From an uncultured Candidatus Saccharibacteria bacterium (GTDB lineage Bacteria; Patescibacteriota; Minisyncoccia; Minisyncoccales; JANBVM01), in contig CAZBMQ010000004.1 in assembly GCA_964493485.1 (NCBI GenBank), forward strand, positions 4,340 to 68,339: a DNA stretch of 64,000 bases, written 5' to 3'. Of this stretch, positions 4,205-55,354 are shown one piece after another. Position 1 is the first letter of the stretch; each line of letters starts with the position of its first letter. The translations under genes and the position numbers were made by a program. The notes below the pieces were generated by a model, which saw only the letters and a list, made by a program, of their open reading frames with translations, was not told where the DNA came from and did no database searches.

Positions 4205-5329
4205 TTATTCTTCCTCAATCAAAGTTCCAGCAAAACCAGCTCCCTGGGTAACATTAATAACACCTCTATTCCAGTAGGTCTTCCACTTATCAATTCTAGA
4301 AATCGTGTATAAGTACTTCAAATCTCTACCTCGTGCCCAAAAAGCAACATTAATATCTAGTGCATAACTATCGAAAGGAAGTTTTATTTTGGGTAACCAT
4401 TTTGCCTCAAATAATCCATATCCTCCTCTCAGCAAAGCTTTTCTTAAATTATTCTCCCAATCTTTATGGGTCATCAATCTTCCTATGTAGACATCTGCGC
4501 CAGAGCTCCCCAGAAACCTTTTTAAAACCCATTTATCTTTTTCCCTGAGGCCAAAACTAACCTTTTCTTCAGTATCCAAAACTATTACCTTCCCGGCTAA
4601 CTCAATATTAGATAGCAAAGATTTGTCTGAGATAAAACCATTAGAAGGAATAGTATTGAATACCAAATTTCTTGGATAATTCTTAATGTGCTCCATAAAT
4701 TCATAACTGAACTCAGAAGGACCTCTGGTGTTCCTGTAATCTCCATAAAGATATACTGCCTTCTCTTTTCCTATTAAACCTTCTTTAATAAACTTAGTTT
4801 CAGTTACCACTGAAAATTTCAATCCAGATTCACTTAGTTCTCTAAAGAATATTTCTCCCCATTGGGTTTTAACAAACCCATTTCCTTTAACAATTATGAT
4901 TTCTTCATTTCCATATGTTTCTTTTACAGCTTTAACAAATCTTTCAGTGGCTATGGGCTGGAGTTTCTTCAAAATTGGCTTTGCATTGTGAAGCACAGAA
5001 ACCGCTGTATGGCATTCTGGACTTCTGTCATTGATTTCATAAATTCCTGTAATCTCTATGTTACCCAAATCATATCCTTTTTTACCTTCCCATTCTATCT
5101 TCTTGGGAATACTCGAAAAACTAGGAACCAAATCATATCTAATAAGCCCTGTAAAATCAGGACATATATAAATTAGTGTTTTCCATATTTTCTTGCAAAT
5201 CTCTGTTAATTCCCTTCTTTCTTTTTCTGTAATGATTAAAAGCCCATTTATAGCCCCAATTTTTTTCTCACCTAACATAAAAGGAGAGCTGGTATCTAAA
5301 AATGGCTGACCAAACAATACAATTTTCAT
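4205..5329 (-). CDS. ATP-grasp-type ligase-like protein, paralog A (GSP-synthase / circularly-permuted ATP-grasp-like; family tentative)
   Basis: 374 aa. It aligns end to end with the ORFs at 5599.. and 7089... Shared motifs are GLIRxDLVP...IYExNxRSPEC, VLKxFLGSSGxDxYxGR and LDINxxFW...GVINVxxGxGFxGTLI. SD AAAGGTGA lies 6 nt upstream. Confidence 0.7.
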   Translation of the reverse strand: MKIVLFGQPFLDTSSPFMLGEKKIGAINGLLIITEKERRELTEICKKIWKTLIYICPDFTGLIRYDLVPSFSSIPKKIEWEGKKGYDLGNIEITGIYEINDRSPECHTAVSVLHNAKPILKKLQPIATERFVKAVKETYGNEEIIIVKGNGFVKTQWGEIFFRELSESGLKFSVVTETKFIKEGLIGKEKAVYLYGDYRNTRGPSEFSYEFMEHIKNYPRNLVFNTIPSNGFISDKSLLSNIELAGKVIVLDTEEKVSFGLREKDKWVLKRFLGSSGADVYIGRLMTHKDWENNLRKALLRGGYGLFEAKWLPKIKLPFDSYALDINVAFWARGRDLKYLYTISRIDKWKTYWNRGVINVTQGAGFAGTLIEEE

Positions 5330-10879: not shown

Positions 10880-11479
10880 TTATTCCCACTTTACTATATA
10901 TTCATGATATTTATCTCCTCTATAAACACATTTGGTTTCTTCACAACTTACTGGTTTACCCAACACCATTTTTATTATACTTATTAAATAACCTTCCACA
11001 GTCAAGCAATGAAATGGATGGTGTTCAAAGTTTTCAACTCTTACCACTATATATTTTTTCTCTTTATTTATTTCAGTTACCTTCATATCTCCGGTTGTAT
11101 AATATCTTCTCCAAAATTTAGATGCATGCTTTGCAATCACTTCAAGAGAAACAAAATATTTCATAAAAAGTTTTACCACAAGAGACACCTTTGAATTAAA
11201 CTCCCCCATTTTAATAAATTCTTCTCTATCAAAATTGAAAAGCTTCTTGAAAACTAAAAATGTTAAAGCCTCTAACCCTATTGGATAAAGAGCCATTCCA
11301 TTCATCTCTTTGTATTTTATTGGGTAACCAAGCTTTTCTAATTCTTGTTCTACTTTTCTTAATCCTTCCTCTCCTTCTTTATAAAGAATATATTCTAAAT
11401 CTCCCATAATAGAAACACCTCTTGTTTCTCCTTTAATCTCCATTAATTTTTTAGCTGTTTCTTTTGTTAGTTCCTCCAT
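10880..11479 (-). CDS. ~200-aa Cys/His-motif sensor-like protein, family member 1 of 9 (V4R/DUF2378-like, tentative)
   Basis: Shares IKGETRG, EGEEGL, LGYPI, FYP, FMKYF, HPFHC and the C-terminus CEETKCVYRGDKYHEYIVKWE with eight paralogs in the window. Confidence 0.6.
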   Translation of the reverse strand: MEELTKETAKKLMEIKGETRGVSIMGDLEYILYKEGEEGLRKVEQELEKLGYPIKYKEMNGMALYPIGLEALTFLVFKKLFNFDREEFIKMGEFNSKVSLVVKLFMKYFVSLEVIAKHASKFWRRYYTTGDMKVTEINKEKKYIVVRVENFEHHPFHCLTVEGYLISIIKMVLGKPVSCEETKCVYRGDKYHEYIVKWE

Positions 11480-11516
11480 AAATTTTAAAAAGTTTATAAT
11501 TTGTAAATAATAAATA

Positions 11517-12116
11517 TTACCATTTTAATACAAACTCATGATATTCATCACCTCTGTGAACGCATTTTGTCTCTTGACAGGTTGCAGGGGTCCCTACTAT
11601 CATTTGAACTATTCCGGGAAAATATCCTTGAAGATCCAAACATAAAAGTGGATATCCTTGGAAATTCTTGATTTTAATGATTGCATATTTTTTTTCTTCA
11701 TCAAATTCTGGAACCTCCAAATCTCCTACTGTATAATTTTCTTTCCACATTTTAGGAGCTACCTTTATTGCTTGTTTCATTGAAAAAAAATATTTCATAA
11801 AAAGTCGAATAATAAACGAAAGCTTAGATTCAAATCTCCCCATCTCTCTAAATTTCTCATCATCGTAATTAAAGAGTCTTTTTATCGCTACTAATGTAAC
11901 AACTTCTAATCCCAAAGGATAGAAATCCATTGCTTTTATTTCTTTAAATTTTATTGGATAGCCTAATTCTGCTATTGTTTTTTCCAATTTTTTGAGCCCT
12001 TCTTCTCCTTCCTGTTTAAGAATAAAATTCCCTTCTCCTTTAAGAGACATTCCCCTTGTTTCTCCCTTTATCTTCATTAATTCTTCAAACTCCTCTTTTG
12101 AAATAATCTGAGACAT
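11517..12116 (-). CDS. Cys/His-motif sensor-like protein, family member 2 of 9
   Basis: Family motifs present; C-terminus CQETKCVHRGDEYHEFVLKW. Confidence 0.6.
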   Translation of the reverse strand: MSQIISKEEFEELMKIKGETRGMSLKGEGNFILKQEGEEGLKKLEKTIAELGYPIKFKEIKAMDFYPLGLEVVTLVAIKRLFNYDDEKFREMGRFESKLSFIIRLFMKYFFSMKQAIKVAPKMWKENYTVGDLEVPEFDEEKKYAIIKIKNFQGYPLLCLDLQGYFPGIVQMIVGTPATCQETKCVHRGDEYHEFVLKW

Positions 12117-12157
12117 AATTATATATCATTTATGTTCAAAGTTCGAGGTTGGAAATT

Positions 12158-12763
12158 TTACTCCCATTTTATTATGAACTCATGATATTCGTCTCCTCTA
12201 TGGATACACTTAGTTTCTTGGCAAGTTATTTTCCCTTTTATTACCATCCCTACTAAAGCTGGGAAATATCCTTCAAGCCCTATACAATAAACCGGATGTA
12301 AAGCAAAGTTTTCAAGCCTTATAATTATATATTTCTTTTCTTTATTTAATTCAATCACTTTTAATTCCCCTGATGTATAATACTTGTGCCACATCTTAGA
12401 TGCGCTTTTCACAATCAAATCAAGGGAACCTAAATATCTTATAAAAATCCTTATTACAGAGGGGATTTTGGCGCTAAAAGCTCCCAATGCTTTAAAATCA
12501 TCTTTTGTATAATTAAACAATTTCTTGCACGCCAACATAATAACAGGCTCCAACCCAGAAGGATAAAATTTCATTGGTTCTATTTCTTTATATTTTATTG
12601 GATAACCAAGTTTTTCTAACTCTTGTTCCAGCATTTTTACACCGTCTTTGCCTTTCCTCTTTAAAACATAGTCAAAATCATCTTTTATTGCTATCCCTCT
12701 TGTTTCTCCTTTTATTTCCTCAATTATTTTTTTAGCAAGTTCTTTATTGATAATTTCTTCCAT
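12158..12763 (-). CDS. Cys/His-motif sensor-like protein, family member 3 of 9
   Basis: Family motifs present; C-terminus CQETKCIHRGDEYHEFIIKWE. It is third in a tandem triple. Confidence 0.6.
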   Translation of the reverse strand: MEEIINKELAKKIIEEIKGETRGIAIKDDFDYVLKRKGKDGVKMLEQELEKLGYPIKYKEIEPMKFYPSGLEPVIMLACKKLFNYTKDDFKALGAFSAKIPSVIRIFIRYLGSLDLIVKSASKMWHKYYTSGELKVIELNKEKKYIIIRLENFALHPVYCIGLEGYFPALVGMVIKGKITCQETKCIHRGDEYHEFIIKWE

Positions 12764-25486: not shown

Positions 25487-26086
25487 TTACCATCTTAAAA
25501 TAAATTCATGATGCTCATCGCCTTTGAAAACACACTTTGTCTCTTCAGCTGTTACATCTTTCTTTACCATTAATTTTAAAAGGCTTGAAAAATAACCTTT
25601 AAGTACTTGGCAGTTAAAAGGACTCAATTTCCAGTTTTCCAACCTTAAAACAATGTATCTATCTTTCTTATTAAACTCTGCAACCTTTAAATCTCCTACA
25701 GAAAAAGCATTCCTCCACATTTTAGCTGCCATTTTAAGGCTTCTTTCTGGTGAAAAGATATAAGAGATGAAAAGTCGGATGAGAGGAGATACTTTTCCTT
25801 CTTTAGCCCCCATTTCTTGAAACTCCTTGTCTCCATAATTAAAAATTCTATGAATAAGCAACAAAATCAATGCTTGATACCATAAAGGATAGAAATCCAT
25901 CTTCTTTATCTCATTAAACCTTAAAGGATGCCCTGTTTCAGCTAATGCATTTTCTAATTTTTTTACACCATTCTCTCCTTCTTTTCTCAAAATAAATTCT
26001 CCATCTTCCCAAAGAGAAAAACCCCTCACCTCTCCTTTTATTTTCATTAACTCCTCTAACTCTTTTTTTGAGACTATTTGTTCCAT
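25487..26086 (-). CDS. Cys/His-motif sensor-like protein, family member 4 of 9 (divergent)
   Basis: Family motifs present; the C-terminus is AEETKCVFKGDEHHEFILRW, so the first Cys of CxETKC is replaced. Confidence 0.55.
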   Translation of the reverse strand: MEQIVSKKELEELMKIKGEVRGFSLWEDGEFILRKEGENGVKKLENALAETGHPLRFNEIKKMDFYPLWYQALILLLIHRIFNYGDKEFQEMGAKEGKVSPLIRLFISYIFSPERSLKMAAKMWRNAFSVGDLKVAEFNKKDRYIVLRLENWKLSPFNCQVLKGYFSSLLKLMVKKDVTAEETKCVFKGDEHHEFILRW

Positions 26087-26161
26087 AGATACAAGATATT
26101 GTTTGCCTTCTGTATAATAATCATTTATCTTAACTAAAAAAGAAAATTTTGTAAAACAAAA

Positions 26162-26761
26162 TTACCACTTTAGTAAATATTCATGATGTTCATGCCCCCA
26201 ATGAGGACACTTTACTTCTCTGCATACTACATCTGTATTCGTAATCATTGCTACTATGCTTCCGATAAATCCTTCCAAGGTTCTGCAATAACAGGGATGA
26301 TGATTAAAGTCCTTCACCACCAAAACACCCTGCTTTTTCTCTTCATCCAACTCTTTAACTGTCAAACTACCAAAATCATAATACTTCTCCCATATTTTTG
26401 AAGCCTCTTTTGCCATTGATTTTATTGAATAAAAATATCTTAAGAACATCCTCAAAATAAAAGAAATCTTGGATTCAAAAATCCCGGCTTTCCTAAAATC
26501 ATCATCTGAAAAATTAAAAACCTCTTTAAGAATTAATGTAGTCAAACCTTCATATTTTACAGGATAAAAGCTCATAGCCTTCATTTTTCTGTAGTCTACA
26601 GGACAACCAAGCTTTGCCATTTCTTCCTCTAGCCTCTTTAAACCCTCTTCTCCTTTTTCATGAAGAATAAACTCTGCCTCTCCTTTAATCGCCATTCCTC
26701 TCGCTTTCCCTTTAAGATTCATCATTTTCTCTATCTCTTCTTTTGGTATAGTGTTTTCCAT
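26162..26761 (-). CDS. Cys/His-motif sensor-like protein, family member 5 of 9 (divergent)
   Basis: C-terminus CREVKCPHWGHEHHEYLLKW; also HHPCYC. Confidence 0.55.
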   Translation of the reverse strand: MENTIPKEEIEKMMNLKGKARGMAIKGEAEFILHEKGEEGLKRLEEEMAKLGCPVDYRKMKAMSFYPVKYEGLTTLILKEVFNFSDDDFRKAGIFESKISFILRMFLRYFYSIKSMAKEASKIWEKYYDFGSLTVKELDEEKKQGVLVVKDFNHHPCYCRTLEGFIGSIVAMITNTDVVCREVKCPHWGHEHHEYLLKW

Positions 26762-30615: not shown

Positions 30616-31212
30616 TCACCATTTTATCAAAAATTCATGCCATTCGCCTCCTTTATGTACGCATCTTGTCTCTTCACATGAAACAGAAGTTTTTACTATC
30701 ATTTTTACTATGCTTACATAATAACCCTTAAGAACCTCGCATAAAATAGGATGAAGTTTAAAATTTTCAATCCTTATGATTATATATCTTTTTTCTTTGT
30801 TTAATTCTGCAACCTTGAGATTTCCTATAGTATAATATTTTCTCCACATTTTAGGAGCTTCTTTGGCTACCCTATCAAGCGAAACAAAATATTTCATAAA
30901 AAGCCGGATTATAAGAGAGGCTTTTGCTTCAAATTCACCCATCTGTTGAAATTTCTTGTCATCGTAATTAAAAAGCCTTTTAATAGCTAAAAGGGCCACA
31001 CCAAGCAATCCTAAAGGATAAAATTCCATTGGGCTTATTTTTTCATATGGATAGCCGAAATCTGACATTACTTCTTTAAGTCTTTTCAAACCTTCTTCTC
31101 CCTCTTCTTTCAAAACAAATTTTGCTTCAGTTTTAAAACCTAATCCCCTAGTCTCTCCTTCCAATGCCATTAACTTATCAAACTCTTCTTTTGAAATTAT
31201 TTCTTTTTCCAT
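30616..31212 (-). CDS. Cys/His-motif sensor-like protein, family member 6 of 9
   Basis: C-terminus CEETRCVHKGGEWHEFLIKW. It lies immediately upstream of the methyltransferase-HK3 pair. Confidence 0.6.
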   Translation of the reverse strand: MEKEIISKEEFDKLMALEGETRGLGFKTEAKFVLKEEGEEGLKRLKEVMSDFGYPYEKISPMEFYPLGLLGVALLAIKRLFNYDDKKFQQMGEFEAKASLIIRLFMKYFVSLDRVAKEAPKMWRKYYTIGNLKVAELNKEKRYIIIRIENFKLHPILCEVLKGYYVSIVKMIVKTSVSCEETRCVHKGGEWHEFLIKW

Positions 31213-34661: not shown

Positions 34662-35264
34662 TTACCATTTTACTAAAAACTCGTGACACTCATCTCCTTT
34701 GTATATACATTTAGTCTCTTCACATATTCCCTCATTACCAATTATCATCTTCAAAGCGCTAGGCAAGTATCCAATAAGAATCTGGCAATGAAGCGGATGA
34801 CAATGATAATTCTCCAGCCTTAAAATTATATACTTTTTTTCTTTGTTATACTCAGCTACTTTTAAATCTCCTACTGTCAAATGCTTCCTCCACATTTTTG
34901 GAAGTTCCTTCAATACTCTTTCAATTGAGAAAAAATATCTTACAAAAAGCTTTATAAGTAAAGAGGCTTTAGTATGAAATCTTCCCATTTCTCGAAACTT
35001 TCTATCATCGTAATTAAAAAGCCTCTTGATAGCCACTAACATTGCAACAAGTATCCCTAAAGGATAAAAATCCATTGCTCTTATCTCTTTGAATTTTATT
35101 GAATAACCCAACTCAGCCAAAACATTTTCCAATTTTTTCAAACCTTCTTCTCCTTCTTCTTTAAGAATGAAATCTGCATAGCTTTTCATTCCTACAGCTC
35201 TTACCTTTCCTTTTATTCTCATTAGTTCAGTAAACTCTTGTTTTGAGATTATATATTCTTTCAT
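34662..35264 (-). CDS. Cys/His-motif sensor-like protein, family member 7 of 9
   Basis: C-terminus CEETKCIYKGDECHEFLVKW. It lies upstream of the methyltransferase-HK4 pair. Confidence 0.6.
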   Translation of the reverse strand: MKEYIISKQEFTELMRIKGKVRAVGMKSYADFILKEEGEEGLKKLENVLAELGYSIKFKEIRAMDFYPLGILVAMLVAIKRLFNYDDRKFREMGRFHTKASLLIKLFVRYFFSIERVLKELPKMWRKHLTVGDLKVAEYNKEKKYIILRLENYHCHPLHCQILIGYLPSALKMIIGNEGICEETKCIYKGDECHEFLVKW

Positions 35265-38305: not shown

Positions 38306-38914
38306 TTATTCCCATTTTAATAAAAATTCATGACATTCATCTCCTTTATAAACACATTTTGTCTCTTCACAACTCACCTGATTACTTCCAGTAATTATCT
38401 TTAAAAGGGTATAAAAAAGTCCTTGAATATGAAGACAATAAAGAGGGTGAACATCAAAATCTTTTAATGCAACTATTAATTTTCTGTTCCTTTCATCAAA
38501 CATTACATTTTCAAGCCTACCCAATGTAGAAAACTTCTTCCAAAGCATAGGAATCTTCCTGAAAAACACATCTTTTCTCTGTAAAAAATGCTTCATAAAA
38601 AATCTGATGAGAGCCGGTACTTTTGCAGATTCCATTCCCATTTCTCTTATATCTTTCTCTGAAAAATTAAGTGCTTGTTTTATTACTAAAAGATTAAGGG
38701 TTCTTAAGCCTATAGGATAAAATCCCATTGCTCGAATCTCATCATATTTTAAGGGATATCCTAACCTCTCCATTTCTTTTTCTACCTTTTCTAACGATTC
38801 TTTTCCTTTTCTTCTTTCAATAAATTGAGCGTCTGCCTTAATGACAATCCCTCTTATTTCTCCACTTATCTTCATCAACTCATCAGCTTTTTCTTTTGAA
38901 ACTATTTCTTCCAT
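38306..38914 (-). CDS. Cys/His-motif sensor-like protein, family member 8 of 9
   Basis: C-terminus CEETKCVYKGDECHEFLLKWE. Confidence 0.6.
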   Translation of the reverse strand: MEEIVSKEKADELMKISGEIRGIVIKADAQFIERRKGKESLEKVEKEMERLGYPLKYDEIRAMGFYPIGLRTLNLLVIKQALNFSEKDIREMGMESAKVPALIRFFMKHFLQRKDVFFRKIPMLWKKFSTLGRLENVMFDERNRKLIVALKDFDVHPLYCLHIQGLFYTLLKIITGSNQVSCEETKCVYKGDECHEFLLKWE

Positions 38915-40522: not shown

Positions 40523-41122
40523 TTACCACTTCATTAAAAACTCGTGATATTCATCTCCCCTATGGATGCATTTTGTCTCTTCACAAGATACTGGCTTTTT
40601 CACAATTATTTGAAGAATGCTTGGAAAATATCCTTTTTGAGCCTCACAACTAAGAGGGTGGTGATGGAAATTTTCAATTCTAAAAACTACATATCTTTTT
40701 TGTTCATCAAATTCTACTACTTTCAAATCTCCTACTGTGAAATATTTTTTCCAAAGTCTTGGTGCTTCTTTTACGGCTTTTTTCAGTGAAACAAAATATT
40801 GGATAAAAATTCTCATAATCAAAGAAATCTTAGACTCAAATCTTCCCATTTCTTGAAATTTTTTATTATTGAAGTCAAAAAGTCTCTTAATAACCAGTAG
40901 CTTAAGAGCATCTGCCCAAAGAGGATAAAAATCCATTGGTTTTATTTCTTGATATTTTATAGGATAACCCAGCATTGCCATAGCTTCTTCAAATTTCTTC
41001 AATCCATCTTTTCCTTTTTCTTTAAGGATAAACTCTTCTGTTGTCTTAAATGACATCCCCCTTACCTTTCCTTTAAGTTTTTTCAACTTATCTAATTCTT
41101 CTTTTGAAACTATTTGATTCAT
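40523..41122 (-). CDS. Cys/His-motif sensor-like protein, family member 9 of 9
   Basis: I prefer the start at MNQIVSKEEL (41122) by alignment to the paralogs. C-terminus CEETKCIHRGDEYHEFLMKW. Confidence 0.6.
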   Translation of the reverse strand: MNQIVSKEELDKLKKLKGKVRGMSFKTTEEFILKEKGKDGLKKFEEAMAMLGYPIKYQEIKPMDFYPLWADALKLLVIKRLFDFNNKKFQEMGRFESKISLIMRIFIQYFVSLKKAVKEAPRLWKKYFTVGDLKVVEFDEQKRYVVFRIENFHHHPLSCEAQKGYFPSILQIIVKKPVSCEETKCIHRGDEYHEFLMKW

Positions 41123-41203
41123 ATTATTATTTTTTAATTTTATCAGAAAAAAAGTTTTATCAAAATAAAAAAAGTGCATAACGCACTATTAGCATGGAGA
41201 TAT

Positions 41204-41866
41204 CTATCTAACTACATTAAAAGAAACAGTAGAAATTTTGTGTTTTGAAATCCAACCTTTTGGTTTGGTTTCTAAGATGGACCATCTATTATTATAGAAA
41301 ATTCTAAAATTTCCAAAAAATTCTCCAGACACTTTCTTGAGGTCAATCTTAAATTTGGATATTGCTTCATCTAAAAACTCTGTTCTATATATTAATATTT
41401 TACTGCCTGGACTCTCTGTTTCTTTTAAGGACCAGCGCACCTGAAACCCAAATACATAAAAACCTAACGGAACCCTCATCTCTGGAGGTTTTTTTCTTGT
41501 CAAATTCCCTTCCAAAAGATGAATTATCTTTTTTATCTCTTTACAATTAAATTTCTTTACAAGCTTAACAATAGGAACTGAATTTTCTTTTGATATAACT
41601 CCTTTATAGAATTTTCCCTTTTCTAGGATTCGAAAAAGAGGGTCTTCTATTTCTTTATAAAATAAACCAGCTCCTTCTAGTTCACCAATATAATATGCCA
41701 AGAAATAACCAAAAGGAGATATTTCTATCACATACAGATCTAAATATTTCCTATGAATATCAGCAAGCTCTATAAGTGCTTTCTGTTTATATTCTTGAAA
41801 AGAAACACATTCCTTTTTCTCTTTGAGTTCTGCGAATATCTTCGTATACAGGTCAATAAGCTTCAT
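41204..41866 (-). CDS. Hypothetical protein
   Basis: 220-aa ORF; I recognise no motif. Confidence 0.4.
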   Translation of the reverse strand: MKLIDLYTKIFAELKEKKECVSFQEYKQKALIELADIHRKYLDLYVIEISPFGYFLAYYIGELEGAGLFYKEIEDPLFRILEKGKFYKGVISKENSVPIVKLVKKFNCKEIKKIIHLLEGNLTRKKPPEMRVPLGFYVFGFQVRWSLKETESPGSKILIYRTEFLDEAISKFKIDLKKVSGEFFGNFRIFYNNRWSILETKPKGWISKHKISTVSFNVVR

Positions 41867-46573: not shown

Positions 46574-46852
46574 TTAATATCTAATTTCAAATTCTTTAAA
46601 TTCATCTGTGGGTTCTTCAAAATCAATCTTCATATCTTCTACTTTTGAAAAACCAGGGCCCTTTTTGATAAAATCTATTATTTGTTCTATTTTTTCTTTT
46701 TCTCCCTCTACTACAATCTCTACTGCCTCATCGGGCAGATTCTTAACCCAACCTAAAAGCCCGAGTCTTTCAGCCTCTTTTCTTGTATTCTCTCTAAAAA
46801 AAACACCCTGAACATGACCCCACACAATAATGTGGGCTTTCGTCTTTTCCAT
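46574..46852 (-). CDS. acyP: Acylphosphatase
   Basis: [39 protein letters not shown] are present. Confidence 0.85.
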
Positions 46853-47041: not shown

Positions 47042-47374
47042 TTACAAAAGTTTTTTTTGTCTAAAAAGATTTGCAACCTCTAAAGCTCTCTTTCTTCCTT
47101 TCTTTGTCAAAGAAAACATGCTTTTGGGATTTCCAGTAATTAAATTTTGGTCTCTCAAACTTCTAAGAGGTCTATCCAACTTGCGTGTGTCGGGCCACTT
47201 GGAATATCCAGAAAGACAAAAAACTTTGGGAAACAACTCAAAGCATTTATGAACCAAGGTAGCAAATCTACATTCTCTATTAGCGCTAGTGATTGAATGA
47301 ATTCCAAAAAGAATTAAATCACTGATAGCTATCTTTTTATAAAGTTCTTCTTCTATTAAAACTTTCTTTTTCAT
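47042..47374 (-). CDS. Hypothetical protein
   Basis: 110-aa ORF; I recognise no motif. Confidence 0.35.
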   Translation of the reverse strand: MKKKVLIEEELYKKIAISDLILFGIHSITSANRECRFATLVHKCFELFPKVFCLSGYSKWPDTRKLDRPLRSLRDQNLITGNPKSMFSLTKKGRKRALEVANLFRQKKLL

Positions 47375-47493
47375 CTTCTCTATATTTTAATATATTTTCA
47401 TTTTTAAGAAAATTTGTAAACCCTGTAAATAAAACTTAAAAAATTATTATTAAAATAAAAGATTAATAAAAAGAGTTAAGCTTAAATTGATTT

Positions 47494-50400
47494 TTATTGA
47501 ATCCCAATATGTTCCTCATCTATATTTACAGGTTCTGTAAGTATCGGCTCTATTATCTTTTCTCTCGCTCCTTCCGGCTCTTCTCCATTGTTTATTCTTT
47601 TTTTGATTTCTTCTAAATCTGTAGTGCCCCAATAATTTCTAGAAAGATCTATTGGGCCCTGACCTATACAATAGTTGTCAGTTACCTCTCCATAGATATT
47701 ATTATATTTCACAACTGGGGTGCTGCAACCAAGATGAAGAGTAGATCCCTTTTCGAACTTATTATATTGAATATTACCTGAAACTGAACCATAAGTATCG
47801 AAAAACATAAGTGTTGTATTGCTTTTAAAAATATTGTGAGTTATATCTGCTCCTTCTGCACTTTCAAGCATAATTGCATTTGTCTGAGGAAATGCTGGTC
47901 CGAATATATTGTAGTGCAAATTTGAACCTTCGTAATGATGATCCACCATCTCTCCACCTGTATATTCAATATGATTATGCTCTATACGAACATTTGAAGC
48001 ATCGAGGTTCATACATATAGGACAATTTTTTGTCATAGTAAAATATGAATTCTTAATATAAGAGTTTCCGGTAAACAAGCCAGTAGCTATATAGTTGCTG
48101 GCATTCACATATTCAAATTCTACATGCGCATCATTAAGATTCATACCAAGCCAATCACCTGACCATGGTTCATCAGCATCAGAATGAATATTTATCCAAT
48201 TCTCTTTTGTGCCTTTTGCTATCAAATTTCCTGAAAATTTCATTGTGATATGATCTGGCTCACATGTAGATTTTTGTCCTTGTTTATAAAGATTCAAACA
48301 ATCGGGAGGACACTCTACAGGTTCTGTATTGCATGTATCTCCAAATAAATTGTTATCATCACTATGAGCTGCAACCCATATATTTGTTCCGGGAAGTATG
48401 GTTATTGTCGTACCTTCCAAAGCAAAAATATCTCCGGTTATATAAATATCTCCACTCCATATTTCATCACAGTAGATATATCCACTTGTAGTTATATGTC
48501 CCTCTTTGCAACAGTCCTCTGGGCAAATCATTCCATTTTCTTCTTCAGAACATTCTCCGTCACCACATACTACTTTACCGGTAGGCATAGACTTATTTAC
48601 TTGGCATTCTCCACAATCCTCAGGACAAAGTTGACAATTTTCCTCTTCTGTACATTTCCCATCTCCGCAATAGTCTTCATTTTTTTCTTTTGTTTCGTTC
48701 TGATACCTCCCTTCATTTTGAAACCCTTCCTTCTCAGAAGATCCACCACAATCCTCTGGACAATTCTCTGCTGTTTCGGGTCCATCACAAACCCCGTCAC
48801 CACAATACCTTTGGCTTTTCTGCTGAGTTTCATCCATCTCCGGCTCTACCGGCTCTACCTGTTTCTCAACTTTAGATTCCTTTGTGTGATAAAAAATTTT
48901 CTTGATATTCTTTTTCGTCTGCCCACCCATTAGAATAATTCCAAGAATAATCAAAATAAACACTGCCAACAATAAATATTTATTAGACCAATAAAACTTT
49001 CTTTTTAAAATGAATTTTTTGAAAACGATTACCAAAAATATAACCCCTATAGCTATAAGTATGTAATGGATAACCGATAAATTCTCTGTCCCTAAAAATT
49101 TAAAAAACTGAACAATTTTTCCTTTTTTTTCAAGAGATGGACCTGTTAATTGGCTATAATTATTCTCTCCTTTTTTAACTTCCCCTTCATAAAAAACAAT
49201 ATCTCCATTTCCCATCCCAAGAATTAAAAGAGAAGCATCTTCACTCATCCAAACAACATTGGCAGCCTCTCCTGTTTCTCCAATACCTGTCATCTCTATT
49301 TCTTTATCTTTTTCCCTCTGCCAAAGAACATTCCCGGAATTATCAAAAAGTGTTGGATTTGGACCGCCGAATAAAGAATACTGGGCATTTTTTGTAAGAT
49401 AAGCGCCATTATGACCAAGCCCACCAAAAAATCTAGCCCAAACAAATTCTCCCTCCGAATCCAATTGATAAATCATTCCAGCTACAGTCCCTCCTAAAAC
49501 AGTGCCGTCATCGGCAATATCGCCTGCGGTAACTGTTTGATCCACAGCTGTTTTCCACAATCTTTTTCCGTCTTTTAAATCAAAAGCAACAAAAGCCCTT
49601 CCTTTACCTGCAGTGACTGCCATATTTTTCTCTTCCGATATCCCAAGGATAAAAGGAACATAATAATCACCTGATGCCATCCAGTTTAATCTTCCAGTTT
49701 GAGTATCTATCGAATGCAAAAGCCCATTACTCGAGGCAAGATACACAGTCTTACCGTCCCGTGAAAACCTTCCTTCCCGAAGAAAACTACCAGTCCCAAA
49801 TTCCCAAATAATTCTACCTGTCTTCGTTTCAAAAAGAGCGGATTTTTCTGCTATACCTCTAACAGGACCAGTAAGAAGATATTCTCTATCTGGCGAGAAT
49901 TTAATCCAACGCGATTCATGATTTTCATTTTGATGCTTCCAAACTAACTCTCCTTCCTTGTCCCATAAATATACTGCTCCTCCCACACAGCCTGCTGATA
50001 CATATTCACCCGAAGGAGAGATATCCAGCCCCCAGCATTCTTCTTTGGTTTCTCTTTCCCAAATCACATTTCCTTTTCTATCTGTCAATATAATTTTCTT
50101 TGGAATATCTAAAGAAAAACTATCTGGTGCACAATGGCATCCGTGAGAAAAAGCAAAATATTGCCCATCATCAGAAGACTTTATCCACCATATAGAATAA
50201 TTAGATTTTATTCTTCCAATTTCTTTATATTCTCCAACCTTGTCTAACGGCTCAAGCGAAACAATTCTAACTTCTTCTTCTGGTAAAAAATCAGATTCAA
50301 AATAACTTTTATATCCTTTGGCTGAAACTTGAAGGAAGTAGCCTTTGTTTTTCTGATTCACTTCATATTTCTTGTAAATTTCTTGAACAAACTTCTTAGA

Positions 50401-51018
50401 AGGAAGTGATAATATATATTCCTCTCCTTTTTTCTGGGCCCTGTATTGTAATATAGCTGACGGAAGCGTAGCTAAAATATTTGCTTGAGAAATTGGTTCT
50501 TGTGTATTCTTATCAATCACCAAAAACCTACTTTGAACTAAATTTTCATTCATCTCTTTATCAGAAATCCATTTGCTTTTGATGGTAAGCGTGATTTTTT
50601 TAATACCTAAATTACCTAAGTCAAAAAAAACAGGAAGAACGAAACTATCTTCTTCTTCTAAAGGAGGATCTATTCTCGTTTCGAAAACAATAATAAAATT
50701 TGCTTGTTGTCCAGGCTCTATTCTATAATATCCATCAGGAACTAATGCATGCCACTCTTCTGGAATATCCTTTGATTTAATCGAACCCTTTACCTTTATT
50801 GTCTCATCTCCTTTGTTTTTTATGGTGGCTACAAAAAGAAAGCTCCTCTCAAAGGGCAGAACCACAGTATGCTCAACTGCATTTGTAACAATCTCAACAG
50901 AAGAACTATCTTTTATTTTTTGGGCTTCTGTTATATTGAAAAACAAAAGCGATGATAAAATTACTGCAATCAAAAGAAAACAATTTAAATTATTCATATG
51001 TTTCTGAATCCTCCACAT
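47494..51018 (-). CDS. Large surface protein: beta-propeller (PQQ/WD-like) repeats, TM segments, CGDGxC-CPEDC Cys modules, right-handed beta-helix
   Basis: 1174 aa. Repeated G.v.W motifs are followed by two TM helices near aa 640-700. There are three YCGDGVCDGPETAENCPEDCG-type modules and NosD/pectate-lyase-like repeats (N.I..N). An alternative start is MNNLNCF (50997). Confidence 0.6.
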   Translation of the reverse strand: MWRIQKHMNNLNCFLLIAVILSSLLFFNITEAQKIKDSSSVEIVTNAVEHTVVLPFERSFLFVATIKNKGDETIKVKGSIKSKDIPEEWHALVPDGYYRIEPGQQANFIIVFETRIDPPLEEEDSFVLPVFFDLGNLGIKKITLTIKSKWISDKEMNENLVQSRFLVIDKNTQEPISQANILATLPSAILQYRAQKKGEEYILSLPSKKFVQEIYKKYEVNQKNKGYFLQVSAKGYKSYFESDFLPEEEVRIVSLEPLDKVGEYKEIGRIKSNYSIWWIKSSDDGQYFAFSHGCHCAPDSFSLDIPKKIILTDRKGNVIWERETKEECWGLDISPSGEYVSAGCVGGAVYLWDKEGELVWKHQNENHESRWIKFSPDREYLLTGPVRGIAEKSALFETKTGRIIWEFGTGSFLREGRFSRDGKTVYLASSNGLLHSIDTQTGRLNWMASGDYYVPFILGISEEKNMAVTAGKGRAFVAFDLKDGKRLWKTAVDQTVTAGDIADDGTVLGGTVAGMIYQLDSEGEFVWARFFGGLGHNGAYLTKNAQYSLFGGPNPTLFDNSGNVLWQREKDKEIEMTGIGETGEAANVVWMSEDASLLILGMGNGDIVFYEGEVKKGENNYSQLTGPSLEKKGKIVQFFKFLGTENLSVIHYILIAIGVIFLVIVFKKFILKRKFYWSNKYLLLAVFILIILGIILMGGQTKKNIKKIFYHTKESKVEKQVEPVEPEMDETQQKSQRYCGDGVCDGPETAENCPEDCGGSSEKEGFQNEGRYQNETKEKNEDYCGDGKCTEEENCQLCPEDCGECQVNKSMPTGKVVCGDGECSEEENGMICPEDCCKEGHITTSGYIYCDEIWSGDIYITGDIFALEGTTITILPGTNIWVAAHSDDNNLFGDTCNTEPVECPPDCLNLYKQGQKSTCEPDHITMKFSGNLIAKGTKENWINIHSDADEPWSGDWLGMNLNDAHVEFEYVNASNYIATGLFTGNSYIKNSYFTMTKNCPICMNLDASNVRIEHNHIEYTGGEMVDHHYEGSNLHYNIFGPAFPQTNAIMLESAEGADITHNIFKSNTTLMFFDTYGSVSGNIQYNKFEKGSTLHLGCSTPVVKYNNIYGEVTDNYCIGQGPIDLSRNYWGTTDLEEIKKRINNGEEPEGAREKIIEPILTEPVNIDEEHIGIQ

Positions 51019-51027
51019 GTTTTATAG

Positions 51028-52443
51028 TTATTCTATTTCAATAAAAACAGGGAGGTTGCTTAATCTTATATTTGAATCTTTAACTATTTTTTCCCTCCCT
51101 AAAATATCTGTGACCTTTATTCTACCTTTTATTTCCTTTGGCAGGTTTCCTCCCCAAACTACATAAACAGGTTTTCCGTTAACAAGGAATTTATATTGCC
51201 CTTCCCCTAATCTTTCAACCGATGAAAATTTGTCTACCTTACCCACCATTGTTTTTAAGGCATAATAAGAAGGGGTAATTCTACATTTTTCTGGATTAAA
51301 TAGCTTTAGGGAGAACGTATCTAATAAAAACCACCCCAATCTCCATCCAAGTTTACCTTTTATAATATAGGCGTCTTCACATTGGACTAATGAATTTTTT
51401 CCTAACCCATAGAAAAATCTTTTTGTTCCTGCATTTAAAGCCTGAACAATCATCTTGACCATATATGCTGCTTCTTCTTCCATCCTGATATTTTTGTCTT
51501 TAGCTTCGTCTATTTCCTTTCCAAAAGTATTTCTTTGATGCTCATCTTCTTCTCTGATCACAAGTTCAGTTATCCATATAGGCAAATCTATATTATGTTG
51601 AACCATGAATTCTTCAGTGCTCTTTAAGTGTAAATCCTTTGGATTCATGTTTGTATGAATATTAAGAATATCTGTATACTCTTTCCCTCCAATATCCATA
51701 AATTCACCCCATACTATTTCTCCCTCACCTAAGAATTCTCCAGCAATCCCCCCAACAAGAACCTTTGCCTCAGGGTCAGCTTTTTTAATTGTAATATAAC
51801 TTGTTTTTAAAACCTCAAGATAGTCCATATCTGTCTCAGACACATAAAAAGCCGGATGTTCTCTGGCTTTTGACTTCTCTGGAGACAAATTAACCTCATT
51901 AATAATTTCCCAATATTTTATAGGATATTTCAAATTCGGCATATCATCTACTCCGTCTCCATCGTAACGCTCCACTAATTTTTGCAGAAACTCTTTGTAT
52001 TCTTCCATATCGCACGGTTTTCCTCTATATCTTCCAAGCATCGGAAAGTTAAACTCTACAAAATATGAAGGATCCATTCGTTTATGACAATTCTTCTGAT
52101 CCCAATCAGCGTATGGCCAAATAGTTACTAATAATGCCACATTGTGCTTTTGCATTTTTTTAACAAAACTATCAACATTCCACCAGTAATAAAAATTATT
52201 TATCCTTTCAATATCTCCCCATATAAAAGGTCCGGGGTGTGGTCTTGCCCAATGAATACCAATATCTTCCATAAAATATAAGTCTTCAGTTGGAGAAAGA
52301 AACCCAAAATAACTTTTATCGAATTCCTTAAAATTCTCAAGATCAAGTTTTTGTCTATTACCATAAAAATTCCCAAATAAAAAAATCCCTACAAAAATAA
52401 TCCCAATAATCATTAAAATTAATAATTTATATGTTTTCATCAT
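51028..52443 (-). CDS. Membrane-anchored TIM-barrel glycoside-hydrolase-like protein (tentative)
   Basis: An N-terminal TM segment is present. YWEIINEVN resembles the acid/base NE motif of clan GH-A, and WITEL is a candidate nucleophile. Confidence 0.45.
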   Translation of the reverse strand: MMKTYKLLILMIIGIIFVGIFLFGNFYGNRQKLDLENFKEFDKSYFGFLSPTEDLYFMEDIGIHWARPHPGPFIWGDIERINNFYYWWNVDSFVKKMQKHNVALLVTIWPYADWDQKNCHKRMDPSYFVEFNFPMLGRYRGKPCDMEEYKEFLQKLVERYDGDGVDDMPNLKYPIKYWEIINEVNLSPEKSKAREHPAFYVSETDMDYLEVLKTSYITIKKADPEAKVLVGGIAGEFLGEGEIVWGEFMDIGGKEYTDILNIHTNMNPKDLHLKSTEEFMVQHNIDLPIWITELVIREEDEHQRNTFGKEIDEAKDKNIRMEEEAAYMVKMIVQALNAGTKRFFYGLGKNSLVQCEDAYIIKGKLGWRLGWFLLDTFSLKLFNPEKCRITPSYYALKTMVGKVDKFSSVERLGEGQYKFLVNGKPVYVVWGGNLPKEIKGRIKVTDILGREKIVKDSNIRLSNLPVFIEIE

Positions 52444-52596
52444 ATAAAATTTATTAATCTGTTATAGTTTTGTAGGGAGATTTAATCCAAAAGTTTTCAA
52501 TAAATAATATAAATACACTCCATTTTTCATTATAACAAAATAATAAAATACTAACCTTTCGGTTGCCGCTTTCCTGTTTCTTAAATAATAGTGGAG

Positions 52597-52646
52597 TATA
52601 CAACCAAGCTCAAACTTATTTTATCAAAAATTCTTGAGAAAAAGGT
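52597..52646. repeat. 50-bp inverted repeat, left copy
   Basis: tatacaaccaagctcaaacttattttatcaaaaattcttgagaaaaaggt. Its reverse complement matches 55175..55224 at 49 of 50 positions, checked base by base. Confidence 0.9.
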
Positions 52647-52667
52647 TAAAAATTATTTATATCATCT

Positions 52668-53450
52668 TTAACTTTTCTTATTAAACGCATATACAGCAGC
52701 GGCGACCATTACTGTGGAAAAAACAACGAGAAACAAAGCGTTGATATGGATTGGGTATAAAACAATGTTTTGTATAACTTCAGGGGCAATTTGGGTATTC
52801 AGAATAATTTGCCTTAAAGCGTCTACACCATAGGTAAGCGGATTAATATTGGAAAGCACAGACATCCATCTTGGCACCGCAGTAAGCGGAAAAAATGCTC
52901 CTGAAAGAAAAAACATAGGGAAAATAAACACTTGCATAAGAAGTCCGAAACTTTCGGTTGTCTTCATAAGAGAGGCGATAAGGAGTCCTATGGCAGAAAT
53001 AGTAAAAGACAAAAGAAGTATAAAAATGAAAAGCTCTGGAATGATGGCGAGATGAATATTAATACCAATAAAGGGAGCAAGAATTAACAATATCAGAGCC
53101 TGAAGCGCAGCAATGGTGGTGGCTCCTAAAGTTTTGCCTATAGCTATAGCAGTGCGCGAAACCGGCGCGACAAGAATCTCCTTCAAAAAACCGAATTCTC
53201 TATCCCAAACAGTTGAGATACTGGAGAAAAAAGCGACCCCCATGACGCTCATCGCGATTATACCAGGATACATAAATTGGGTAAAATCGATTCCAAAGTT
53301 GCCTTGGGCAAGCGTTTGCTTAAGTCCCGTGCCAAAAATAGCCAAAAACATCAAAGGCTGAAGCAGAGTTGAAATAATCCGTGTTTTATTCCTTATGTAG
53401 CGGATTATTTCTCTTTGCCAAATTATATAGATTGTTTGAATAAAATTCAT
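52668..53450 (-). CDS. ABC-2 type transporter permease
   Basis: 260 aa with 6 TM helices and the typical ABC-2 N-terminus (IWQREIIRYIRNK). Confidence 0.8.
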   Translation of the reverse strand: MNFIQTIYIIWQREIIRYIRNKTRIISTLLQPLMFLAIFGTGLKQTLAQGNFGIDFTQFMYPGIIAMSVMGVAFFSSISTVWDREFGFLKEILVAPVSRTAIAIGKTLGATTIAALQALILLILAPFIGINIHLAIIPELFIFILLLSFTISAIGLLIASLMKTTESFGLLMQVFIFPMFFLSGAFFPLTAVPRWMSVLSNINPLTYGVDALRQIILNTQIAPEVIQNIVLYPIHINALFLVVFSTVMVAAAVYAFNKKS

Positions 53451-53458
53451 AATTTTAT

Positions 53459-54433
53459 TTATCTACCACCCCGCATGCGCATTTGTTCACGCATACGATC
53501 TTTTGAGGACGCTTCTTTCTCTCTAATAGTGCAACCTGTTAATAAAAGAAACACATCATCAAGCGTGGGCTTTCGCAATTCTATAGAATCAATCTTAGTA
53601 TCAAGTTCATTAAAGAGACGGGACAAAAACTTTTCTCCGTCTTCAACTTCTATCTGCAGTGTTTCGTCTTCTTCTTTGATTTTTCTTTCATATCGTCTTT
53701 CAAGTTCCTTTTTAAGTTTTTGTTTATCGTTTGATTTGATACGAATAACATCTCCGCCTACCTGTTTTTTAAGATTCGCGGGAGTATCCATTGCTACTAT
53801 TTTTCCATAATCAATAATTCCAATTCTATCGCAATATTCTGCTTCGTTCATATAATGAGTGGTCATAAAAATTGTTATATTGCGCTCACGTTTGAGTTTC
53901 AGGATATATTCCCAGATGTGTACGCGAGTTTGTGGATCAAGCCCCAAAGTCGGCTCGTCCAAAAAAAGTATTTGCGGATAATGAATAAGACCCCGCGCAA
54001 TTTCAAGTCGTCGTTTCATTCCCCCGGAAAATGTTTTGATGATGTCTTCTCTTCGATCCCACAAATCAACAAGCCGCAAAACCTCCTCCATCCGCTTTTT
54101 GTATTCGGTTTTGGGTACACCATAAAGTTTTGCGTGGAAGCGAAGATTTTCTTCCGCTGTTAAGCGGTCGTCAAGAGAGGGATCTTGAAAGACAAGCCCG
54201 ATTGATTTTCGTACATTGTCCCTTTCGGTTAACACATCAAAATTATTTATTGTGGCAGTACCTTCTGTGGGAATTAAGAGCGTTGAAAGCATATTAATGG
54301 TCGTGGATTTTCCGGCACCGTTAGGTCCGAGAAAACCAAAAATTTCTCCCCTTTTTACTTCAAAGGAGATATGATCAACAGCGGTAAGACCGTTGAATTT
54401 TTTGGTTAGGTTTTTTGCCGCTATAATATTCAT
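53459..54433 (-). CDS. ABC transporter ATP-binding protein (DrrA-like)
   Basis: Walker A GPNGAGKST, signature SGGMKRRLEIA and Walker B ILFLDEPT are present. Confidence 0.9.
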   Translation of the reverse strand: MNIIAAKNLTKKFNGLTAVDHISFEVKRGEIFGFLGPNGAGKSTTINMLSTLLIPTEGTATINNFDVLTERDNVRKSIGLVFQDPSLDDRLTAEENLRFHAKLYGVPKTEYKKRMEEVLRLVDLWDRREDIIKTFSGGMKRRLEIARGLIHYPQILFLDEPTLGLDPQTRVHIWEYILKLKRERNITIFMTTHYMNEAEYCDRIGIIDYGKIVAMDTPANLKKQVGGDVIRIKSNDKQKLKKELERRYERKIKEEDETLQIEVEDGEKFLSRLFNELDTKIDSIELRKPTLDDVFLLLTGCTIREKEASSKDRMREQMRMRGGR

Positions 54434-54691
54434 ATGAAGCTATAAACCCCACTAGAAAAGGTAGGATTCTCTAATAGTGTAAGTGAAGAGCATCTTATAA
54501 TCACAGAGGTCAAAAAGTTACACTTTAACACCTTCCAGATTTTAACTTTCTCAAAAATCCATTAGCCTAGTTTTTCACTGAAACAGACTTATCGGGTATT
54601 GCCAATTATAACTTTAATTTTAATTGGATTAATTGATGTGGTTATATTTTTATTACTTACTTTTTTTAATGATTTCGCGAATCGTATCCAA

Positions 54692-54898
54692 TCAACCGGC
54701 AAAATGCGAGGCAAATTGTTCAACCTTTGACAATTTAGAAAATACGAGCATATCGTATCCCATACCAAACGCAAGGAGTTTATCTCCCTTTTTAATACCC
54801 ATTGATTTATGAGCTTCTGTGGGAATAACCACTTGGCCTTTTCCGTCAAGTGTGGTTGTGCCGTAGAATTGCTCGCCATTTTTTTCCTTTTTTGTCAT
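54692..54898 (-). CDS. AbrB/MazE/SpoVT-family DNA-binding protein
   Basis: MTKKEKNGEQFYGTTTLDGKGQVVIPTEAHKSMGIKKGDKLL has the looped-hinge-helix pattern. I prefer the start at 54898 rather than the ORF-track start at 55015. Confidence 0.65.
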   Translation of the reverse strand: MTKKEKNGEQFYGTTTLDGKGQVVIPTEAHKSMGIKKGDKLLAFGMGYDMLVFSKLSKVEQFASHFAG

Positions 54899-55174
54899 AG
54901 CGCTAGTATATATTATTTTAATTAAACATACAAGTAGGAAAAGTACAACTATTAGTCTCATTGTATATTTATATTTTATTAATATCAAATCTTCCTTATT
55001 GCTGAAAAAAAGCACCGTCCGTCCAGCATGCGGGCAAAAAATTATTCCTTTATTGAAGAAATTTTTCTAACCTCCCAAAAAGAAAATAGAAATTTTTGCA
55101 GGTTTTGCTTGGCTTGCGAAAGCTAAGCTGAACCGCTGGATGGGTTAAGCCGCGCCGAAGGAACGGTAAACCTT

Positions 55175-55224
55175 ACCTTTTTCTCAAGAATTTTTGATAA
55201 AATAAATTTGAGCTTGGTTGTATA
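55175..55224. repeat. 50-bp inverted repeat, right copy
   Basis: acctttttctcaagaatttttgataaaataaatttgagcttggttgtata. Confidence 0.9.
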
Positions 55225-55278
55225 AAACCACACCAGAATCTGATTTTATGGCTTTTTCCAAGCCCAGAAGTCAGGTTT

Positions 55279-55354
55279 TGGTGGGCGAAACAGGATTCGA
55301 ACCTGTGACCCCTGCAATGTGAATGCAGTGCTCTAACCACTGAGCTATTCGCCC
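55279..55354 (-). tRNA. tRNA-Val (anticodon CAC), CCA encoded
   Basis: Minus strand GGGCGAAUAGCUCAGUGGUUAGAGCACUGCAUUCACAUUGCAGGGGUCACAGGUUCGAAUCCUGUUUCGCCCACCA. A full cloverleaf can be drawn, with a 7-bp acceptor stem, a GUUCGAAUC T-loop and the anticodon loop UUCACAU. Confidence 0.95.

Follow-up and report, generated by a model that had tools for sequence, protein, structure and literature searches.

A total of 64 kb of the contig, here called the window, was analyzed around a probable exporter operon that lies beside a gene for tRNA-Val(CAC) and is bounded by a near-perfect inverted repeat with 50-nt arms; the arms and the DNA between them are referred to as the cassette, and related loci and contigs by L numbers. 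Based on domain matches, the operon comprises an AbrB-type regulator, a decayed flavin mononucleotide (FMN) reductase gene, a DrrA-type ATPase and a DrrB-type permease of the ABC-2 (ATP-binding cassette) type, all genes between the arms being encoded on the minus strand (table 1). The ABC-2 permease, ATPase and AbrB-type gene named in the initial annotation are recovered by Pfam and NCBIfam models, the last one only weakly: the AbrB/MazE-like assignment rests on PF04014 and TIGR01439 scores that both fall just below their cut-offs. AbrB-type orthologues are located directly 5′ of the ATPase gene in L004–L006, L008, L010, L012, L014, L016 and L017, and the order AbrB-type gene, sometimes an FMN-reductase-like gene, ATPase and permease recurs in many loci. 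The FMN-reductase-like gene is intact in L005, L014 and L025. Its remnant in the window consists of the first ~15 codons only (window SINPIKIKVIIGNTR versus L005 SINPIKIKVILGSTR), and the stretch that contains the spacer with this remnant is 78% identical at the DNA level to L005 3716-4275.

The two arms are 50 nt long each, stand 2528 nt apart and are complementary at 49 of 50 positions, exactly at the coordinates first given for them, with a C/T at 52615 as the lone difference. Both are AT-rich (24–26% GC). At up to three mismatches the 50-mer occurs at the two arm sites only in the 64-kb window, and 100 dinucleotide shuffles gave 0.00 matches. The gap between right arm and tRNA gene, initially put at 55 nt, measures 54 nt. 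On both sides the outer flank reads GTGG, two to three unmatched bases and then the arm, so that the repeat tapers off without a sharp stop. A reading of the outer flanks (...TAGTGGAG and AAACCACA...) revealed no direct repeat, which confirms the reported absence of a target-site duplication. DNA homology to the closest relatives ends between 16 nt before the left arm and 21 nt inside it. An independent assembly (ENA k141_33086) differs from the window by 19 single-nucleotide polymorphisms (SNPs), none of which lies in the cassette, and has identical arms in the identical orientation. Furthermore, short contigs from three other samples are identical to the window across both inner junctions, a Logan contig (L002, k=31) breaks exactly 30 nt into the left arm, where the repeat is expected to end a contig of that k, and a contig from another sample (L090) begins 12 nt inside the right arm.

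The surroundings of the cassette were compared over 21 kb with L094 (GCA_030665965.1), a relative whose MetK is 85% identical to that of the window. Two collinear blocks were identified, one with the genes for PCMT, YceG, DJ-1, L10, L12 and TruD, two unknown genes, an LNS2-like gene and tRNA-Val, the other with a 110-aa gene, acylphosphatase and MetK. The blocks are separated by 30 nt in L094 versus 7.86 kb in the window, and the collinear flanks around the empty site extend over >8.9 kb and 2 kb. Collinearity stops exactly at the 3′ end of tRNA-Val (window 55281), and no homologue of any protein encoded in the intervening DNA was found in the 21 kb of L094. Since L094 lacks the whole 7.86 kb, the variable unit is this larger segment, here called the islet, and the inverted-repeat cassette is its tRNA-proximal third. 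The initial annotation had pointed to tRNA genes as classic integration sites; in agreement, the cassette belongs to DNA that is missing from a syntenic relative and that starts at the tRNA 3′ end. Its proposal of the 2.6-kb cassette as the variable unit is not supported, as the cassette is indeed missing from L094 but only as part of the 7.86 kb. The ends of the islet share no significant repeat. A search for a displaced tRNA fragment, for which the last 45 nt of the tRNA were compared with the DNA within 8 kb, both here and at 11 further loci beside tRNA genes, gave matches at chance level only. A likeness of the 30 nt of L094 to the tail of an arm was considered and dropped, its alignment scores being equal to those of shuffled sequences.

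Table 1. Features of the cassette, the islet and the DNA shared with L094 (positions in the window unless stated otherwise).
Feature	Position	Strand	Description
Left arm	52597..52646	.	21 nt 3′ of permease stop; minus-strand reading is module A′ (ACCTTTTTCTCAAGAATTTTTGATAAAATAAGTTTGAGCTTGGTTGTATA)
Right arm	55175..55224	.	between tRNA-Val trailer and GC-rich non-coding region
ABC-2 permease gene	52668..53450	-	260 aa, DrrB-like; PF01061 134 bits (over cut-off); TIGR01247 drrB 206 bits, just below cut-off 223
ABC ATPase gene	53459..54433	-	324 aa, DrrA subfamily; PF00005 (ABC_tran) and PF13732 (DrrA1-3_C), 127 bits; TIGR01188 drrA 363 bits versus cut-off 312
Spacer with gene remnant	54434..54691	-	258 nt; FMN-reductase/flavodoxin_2-type remnant, gene intact in relatives
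AbrB/SpoVT-type gene	54692..54898	-	68 aa, first operon gene, putative DNA-binding protein; PF04014 21 bits, TIGR01439 27 bits
Conserved 5′-untranslated-region motif	~54948-54928	-	TGTACTTTTCCTACTTGTATG; between promoter and AbrB-type start codon
Promoter-like site	54988-54960	-	TTGATA-17-TACAAT; scan score 10/12
GC-rich structured non-coding region	55012..55174	-	modules B and C, 163 nt, 44% GC; fold z-score -3.3; from right arm to operon promoter
tRNA 3′ trailer	55225..55278	-	with encoded CCA; first part is the 34-nt match 55248-55281 (CCAAAACCTGACTTCTGGGCTTGGAAAAAGCCAT)
tRNA-Val(CAC)	55279..55354	-	ARAGORN; Rfam tRNA 75 bits; 54 nt from right arm
Islet (lineage-specific segment)	47421..55280	-	7.86 kb; trailer, inverted-repeat cassette, 471-aa gene, 1174-aa gene
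Glycosidase-like gene	51028-52443		471 aa; islet member
Beta-propeller protein gene	47494-51018		1174 aa; islet member
Collinear block 1	63999-55281		L094 536-9072; 68% DNA identity
Collinear block 2	47420-45428		L094 9103-11142; 71% DNA identity

The genomic location of the operon was examined in ~41 loci (among L003–L044) with a permease at least 60% identical to that of the window, counting tRNA genes within 600 nt. A tRNA 3′ end faces the operon in 12 of these loci, with at least eight tRNA species involved, and a tRNA 5′ end in one. Co-directional tRNA genes upstream of the operon are those for Val, Glu, Ile (twice), Arg, Gln, Pro and Leu; convergent ones downstream are those for Lys and Leu. 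The coding sequence of the ATPase starts within ~10 nt of the tRNA 3′ end in L022 and L041 (tRNA-adjacent stretches: L022 3074-3150, L041 4933-5013, L016 4505-4647, L025 4223-4335). This adjacency suggests either co-transcription of tRNA and mRNA with processing or a targeting of tRNA 3′ ends. Relatives hold the operon in unrelated neighborhoods, which fits the context of mobility in which it was first placed, and by these homologues it is widespread in the candidate phyla radiation (CPR).

One piece of non-coding DNA is shared between such neighborhoods. In the trailer of tRNA-Val, 34 nt (CCA plus AAACCTGACTTCTGGGCTTGGAAAAAGCCAT) match a flank of tRNA-Lys at 94% identity in L003 and L004, where tRNA-Lys adjoins the same operon and the permease is 87–88% identical to that of the window. 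The 34 nt have no other occurrence in 0.98 Mb of fetched loci and are missing after the orthologous tRNA-Val of L094 and after the other tRNAs of L003/L004. The absence from L094 indicates that the trailer arrived with the inserted DNA, and together with its absence from the other tRNAs of L003/L004 this argues that it travels with the operon and not with the tRNA.

Relative to the shared trailer, the operon is oriented differently in the two settings: the permease end points towards trailer and tRNA (Lys) in L003/L004, and the AbrB end points towards trailer and tRNA (Val) in the window. An in silico flip of the segment between the arms produces the order permease stop, 21 nt, arm, trailer, tRNA. 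This flipped arrangement aligned to the 146-nt spacer of L004 with a score of 24.5 versus 6.0 for the actual one (shuffle mean 9.3, maximum 18.5). At the level of sequence, the comparison shows an opposite orientation; the way in which it arose is outside what it shows. The difference in orientation between genomes fits the invertible segment offered as one option in the initial annotation. Both assemblies of the locus have one orientation, and no invertase or recombinase gene occurs within 10 kb on either side or among the ORFs scanned elsewhere in the window.

A further line of evidence concerns the origin of the arm sequence. Read in the direction of the operon, the arm (module A′) has a single-copy homologue 3′ of the permease gene in L008 (Buchananbacteria; 35/44 bases by BLAST, z = 10–11 versus shuffles) and in L006 (Berkelbacteria; z = 4–6), which count as one lineage because they are 86% identical across the cassette. 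The left arm occupies the position of the homologue in L006/L008 and the right arm is an extra inverted copy. However, if its outer flank (55225-55245) is included, the alignment of the right arm with L006 extends ~20 nt beyond that of the left arm; the right-arm flank would thus be nearer the ancestral continuation, a pattern expected of an inversion with end points in the two copies. The signal for this origin is weak in the sequences compared. Putative arm homologues in L004 and L005 were discarded as not significant in unbiased tests; earlier nhmmer E-values for them were circular, since those sequences had trained the model.

The cassette has a GC content of 36.9% versus 32.6% for the window, which places it in the top 1.1% of equal-sized windows (z ~2.4). 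The shift stems mainly from the two ABC genes, through their third-position GC content (GC3) and their codon usage. Out of 65 open reading frames (ORFs), the ATPase is second and the permease third in GC, and they are fourth and second in GC3 (0.335 and 0.375 versus a mean of 0.262); in codon-usage distance they come first and third out of 41 genes. The compositional anomaly of the cassette is real but modest. The deviation seen at first thus persists in a windowed calculation, with the two ABC genes as the strongest codon-usage outliers in the window, and its direction was read correctly, but the size then given (43% versus 17%) is an artefact of 60-nt samples.

Based on these comparisons, the explanation that we favor, at a probability of roughly 0.45 and thus tentatively, is an integrase-less islet at a tRNA flank in which the operon segment was inverted, or is invertible, by recombination between two copies of a non-coding module. 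The operon is located at the tRNA-proximal end of the 7.86-kb islet, which itself is immediately 3′ of tRNA-Val(CAC). The arms represent two copies of the ~50–60-nt module A′, which is single and located 3′ of the permease in other CPR genomes. The 2.5-kb operon segment would have been inverted in the past, or could still invert, through recombination between the arms, and recombination or gene conversion would hold the arms at 98% identity. The repeats would accordingly be the scar or the substrate of an operon flip within the islet and not the ends of a transposon. The repeat, the gene content, the lack of the 7.86 kb in L094, the shared trailer, the opposite operon orientation in L003/L004 and the arm homology with L006/L008 are direct observations; the inversion event, its direction and the route by which the islet arrived are what we infer.

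Several observations weigh against this explanation. L094 is a single syntenic relative at ~70% DNA identity, so that a deletion in its lineage is possible, and further large insertions set the window apart from it as well. No integrase, recombinase or transposase domain was found in the islet genes or in the other window ORFs checked, as had been reported for transposases and integrases from the start. Most of the score of the flip alignment is due to the trailer, and L004 contains no significant arm homologue, so that the argument that the flipped arrangement equals the ancestral one is based on the trailer and the permease end only. Contigs that cross an arm in the other orientation were not found: both full assemblies agree, and the short contigs from other samples end inside the arms. 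The GC content of the ABC pair follows that of the host across 33 relatives (r = 0.92, mean difference +0.007), for which reason the idea of a generally foreign operon GC was rejected; the pair in the window is ~3 points over the host-GC trend and resembles its closest homologues, which come from genomes of 40–43% GC. Among >7500 permease homologues the top 120, nearly all from Patescibacteria, are 68–91% identical, and MetK of the window (86, 86, 85 ... 71%) displays the same decay profile as the permease (91–68%). Because the profiles match, the high permease identity alone is no evidence of transfer. Horizontal transfer had been considered from the high identity of the permease (91%) against homologues of the 471-aa gene at no more than 48%, and was set aside in view of MetK, which reaches 86% with the same decay; the permease is simply a very conserved protein.

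One alternative develops the non-autonomous mobile cassette considered in the initial annotation: the arms would be its terminal inverted repeats and the operon its cargo, the cassette being either composite or similar to a miniature inverted-repeat transposable element (MITE) and moved in trans by a transposase encoded elsewhere. This would account for repeats located just outside the conserved operon core, for the unrelated neighborhoods of the operon in relatives and for the deviant composition of the ABC genes, and in L008 an IS200/IS605 transposase adjoins the operon, whose three genes are there enclosed by a perfect 53-nt inverted repeat as well. We nevertheless consider it unlikely. A target-site duplication is absent, the window contains no other copy of the arm, and the exact 26-mer core of the arm gave 0 matches in 596 Gb of species-representative genomes and in the metagenomes of JGI, so that, for this exact core, the search for further copies in genome and metagenome collections yielded nothing of the family that had been anticipated. 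Among ~85 related loci, L008 is the only one with flanking inverted repeats; their sequence is unrelated to that of the window arms, and since the repeat abuts Ns and equals one half of a perfect hairpin it is possibly a fold-back artefact and was dropped as an independent confirmation. The homologue of the arm is single-copy in L006 and L008, and the unit missing from L094 is 7.86 kb and not the 2.6 kb between the repeats. MITE-type mobility is, on the sequences at hand, not supported. An origin of the window repeat itself by chance or misassembly is, at most, a very slight possibility: inverted chimeras can arise in metagenome assembly, and a scaffold gap does adjoin the repeat of L008, but chance would produce zero matches, one base distinguishes the arms, two assemblies 19 SNPs apart agree, three further samples confirm the inner junctions and the k=31 contig stops at precisely 30 nt inside the arm.

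The two remaining explanations assign the arms a function without movement. The arms might pair in a transcript that runs from tRNA-Val through the operon, with the resulting 50-bp duplex serving as an RNase III processing site or as a stabilizing stem. The sense transcript pairs at 50/50 positions with one G.U wobble (-72.3 kcal/mol), versus 49 and an A.C mismatch for the antisense strand; tRNA and operon are co-directional, the trailer hairpin has no U-run after it, and the operon often starts 2–75 nt from a tRNA in relatives, which makes co-transcription likely. A single transition would, however, give a wobble on one strand half of the time by chance, the operon has a promoter-like site of its own downstream of the upstream arm, and the complementarity of 5′ and 3′ sequences is not kept in the relatives (~85 loci, L008 excepted), so that such a stem is highly unlikely to be the explanation. 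Alternatively, the arms could be duplicated regulatory DNA, either promoter-like modules or operators of the AbrB-type protein, that acts in local control, for instance by looping from one operator to the other or as promoter of the next gene, and has no role in rearrangement. The module contains TTGATA and TATA-like hexamers, its L006 version reads TTGAAA-16-TACAAT, L087 has TTGATA-17-TATACT with a TG extension at the same position, the left arm offers a -35-like TTGAGC 17 nt before TATTAT in the direction of the 471-aa gene, and the operon encodes a putative DNA-binding protein of the AbrB type. What makes this improbable is that the hexamers in the window arms are spaced by 18–21 nt, that a promoter scan returned 14 sites versus 13.9 expected in shuffled sequence, that the right arm would fire into the tRNA in antisense and that the match in L087 is marginal (8/500 shuffles). 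A better operator candidate is the conserved motif in the 5′ untranslated region, with the consensus (T)ACTTTTC(C/T)(T/A)ACTTGTA, which is also found upstream of the AbrB gene in L005 (~3815-3835), L006 (~4708-4728), L008 (~940-960) and L016 (~4625-4645) and is a candidate for autoregulation.

The GC-rich region between the right arm and the operon promoter was screened against Rfam together with the arms and the corresponding regions of L005, L006 and L008. No family was matched at gathering or permissive thresholds, the tRNA alone being matched, and other Rfam matches fell below the gathering thresholds of their families. Long GC-rich hairpins that are related to this region stand beside the operon in L005, L006 and L008; GC-rich elements were located at L006 4380-4670 and 6790-7050, L008 3008-3265, L005 3360-3715 and L017 2350-2410. 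A hairpin with the G-rich loop GGAGGGG..GGGGAGG recurs in L006, L008 and L017, and its second copy in L006 keeps the loop and has a changed stem. The consensus fold of the elements has a negligible energy (-1.2 kcal/mol), though their primary sequence is conserved. They could be repeats resembling repetitive extragenic palindromic (REP) sequences or palindrome-associated transposable elements (PATEs), or an undescribed RNA or DNA element. In L008 the transposase (163-579, 119 bits) lies directly upstream of the operon and is followed by 268 N (580-847) and then by the 53-nt inverted repeat of the sequence just after the permease; this gap may hide a full-length inverted element, or the repeat may be a fold-back artefact.

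Further observations were made on the window and its close relatives. The 19 SNPs that distinguish the window from the ENA contig, which is of the same species, fall into four tight clusters (46633-46660, 47189-47284, 48716-48778 and 51352-51367). Affected are two genes just outside the islet, for acylphosphatase and the 110-aa protein, and the 1174-aa and 471-aa genes within it; the cassette and all DNA past the tRNA are identical throughout. The clusters look like short recombination tracts. A second ATPase-permease pair from the same metagenome (L086, ENA ERZ27248458 k141_506441) is 90% identical at the DNA level and is located on a 1.7-kb contig that stops 2 nt into the left-arm position. 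Between MetK and IMPDH the window contains ~20 kb that L094 is without. At least 10 paralogous ORFs of ~199–220 aa, of which some have a weak V4R domain, are spread over the window (positions 10880-12763, 25487-26761, 30616-31212, 34662-35264, 38306-38914 and 40523-41866) and mostly adjoin histidine kinases and S-adenosylmethionine (SAM) methyltransferases; a single copy is present in L094.

Close homologues of the permease also occur in metagenome-assembled genomes (MAGs) labelled as other phyla. Those labelled Gammaproteobacteria, Planctomycetota or Aminicenantes encode permeases of 63–75% identity, and those labelled Aenigmatarchaeota reach 44–45% among the fetched loci, with one 75% match in the homologue search; the loci concerned are L012, L014, L023, L027, L028, L034, L037, L038, L069, L072 and L074. 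They could reflect transfer across phyla or mis-binning. A groundwater study lists ORFs for an ABC-2 ATPase and permease among genes that Patescibacteria share with unrelated MAGs at an identity of 95% or more (PMC8672522), which is compatible with either transfer or mis-binning of such genes. A screen for defence systems with PADLOC returned generic ATPase matches only, and IMG/VR contained neither a relative of the permease nor the arm motif that would indicate carriage by phages.

Islands at tRNA flanks and inversions bounded by repeats are well known. Unusual here are the absence of a recombinase, the portable trailer and the recurrence of one conserved operon 3′ of many CPR tRNAs, and no description of this arrangement was found in the literature searched. 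Genomic islands at tRNA genes (tDNA islands) have been catalogued in the Islander database, from which the definition was taken (PMC4383910). The islet resembles them in being lineage-specific DNA that begins at a tRNA 3′ end and is missing in a syntenic relative, and in carrying accessory genes, for a transporter and for secreted or glycosidase-like proteins, with partly deviant codon usage. In contrast to them, it is without a tyrosine integrase, without a displaced 3′ fragment of the tRNA at its far end and without direct repeats at its termini, and the same operon and trailer stand beside different tRNA species, so that any targeting would not be bound to one tRNA sequence. With invertible segments, such as switches of the Hin/Gin/Fim type or inversions by homologous recombination, the cassette shares a near-perfect inverted repeat at its borders and an orientation that varies between related genomes; it differs in that no invertase gene is nearby and in that the segment comprises a whole operon with its own promoter instead of a promoter or variable gene ends. 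The two assemblies of the locus show one orientation.

The group of MITEs, composite transposons, REP elements and their paired form (REPINs), and PATEs is similar in having terminal inverted repeats without a transposase between them; GC-rich long hairpins stand beside the operon in several CPR genomes, with the IS200/IS605 transposase adjacent in L008. In contrast to members of this group, the cassette has no target-site duplication, no multi-copy family was seen in the window or, for the exact 26-mer core, in the collections searched, the arm homologue is single-copy in relatives and no transposase was found among the window ORFs checked. The operon itself is most similar to ABC-2 exporters of the DrrAB type (daunorubicin-resistance family; NodIJ and YadGH-like), with an ATPase that scores over the drrA cut-off and contains the DrrA C-terminal domain, a permease with drrB as its best match and the two genes adjacent. 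It differs from them in that it begins with an AbrB-type regulator, includes an FMN-reductase-like gene in some genomes and is unusually conserved across the CPR (68–91% identity). RNase III processing stems bracket 16S and 23S rRNA. The arms resemble them as long complementary sequences around a 2.5-kb unit 3′ of a tRNA, but their pairing is not kept in relatives of the window.

A broader reading, which we regard as speculative and improbable, would make the AbrB-DrrAB operon the cargo of an integrase-less cassette that circulates in the CPR and lands 3′ of nearly every kind of tRNA gene (those observed being Val, Lys, Glu, Ile, Arg, Gln, Pro and Leu), bringing its own CCA-plus-trailer, with the operon flipping between 50-bp repeats, by which its expression could be coupled to, or uncoupled from, read-through from the tRNA promoter. 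To our knowledge, mobile DNA and genome plasticity are poorly documented in the CPR/Patescibacteria, and few integrases or transposases are recognizable there. The locus described here provides a concrete case with mapped boundaries of a variable islet at a tRNA 3′ end without a recombinase, and within this islet one of the most conserved transporter operons of the CPR lies between near-perfect inverted repeats. If the tRNA association and the flip are true, they would point to a recombinase-independent or trans-acting way of moving and re-orienting an operon in minimal genomes, or to a routine co-transcription of tRNA and the mRNA of an exporter.

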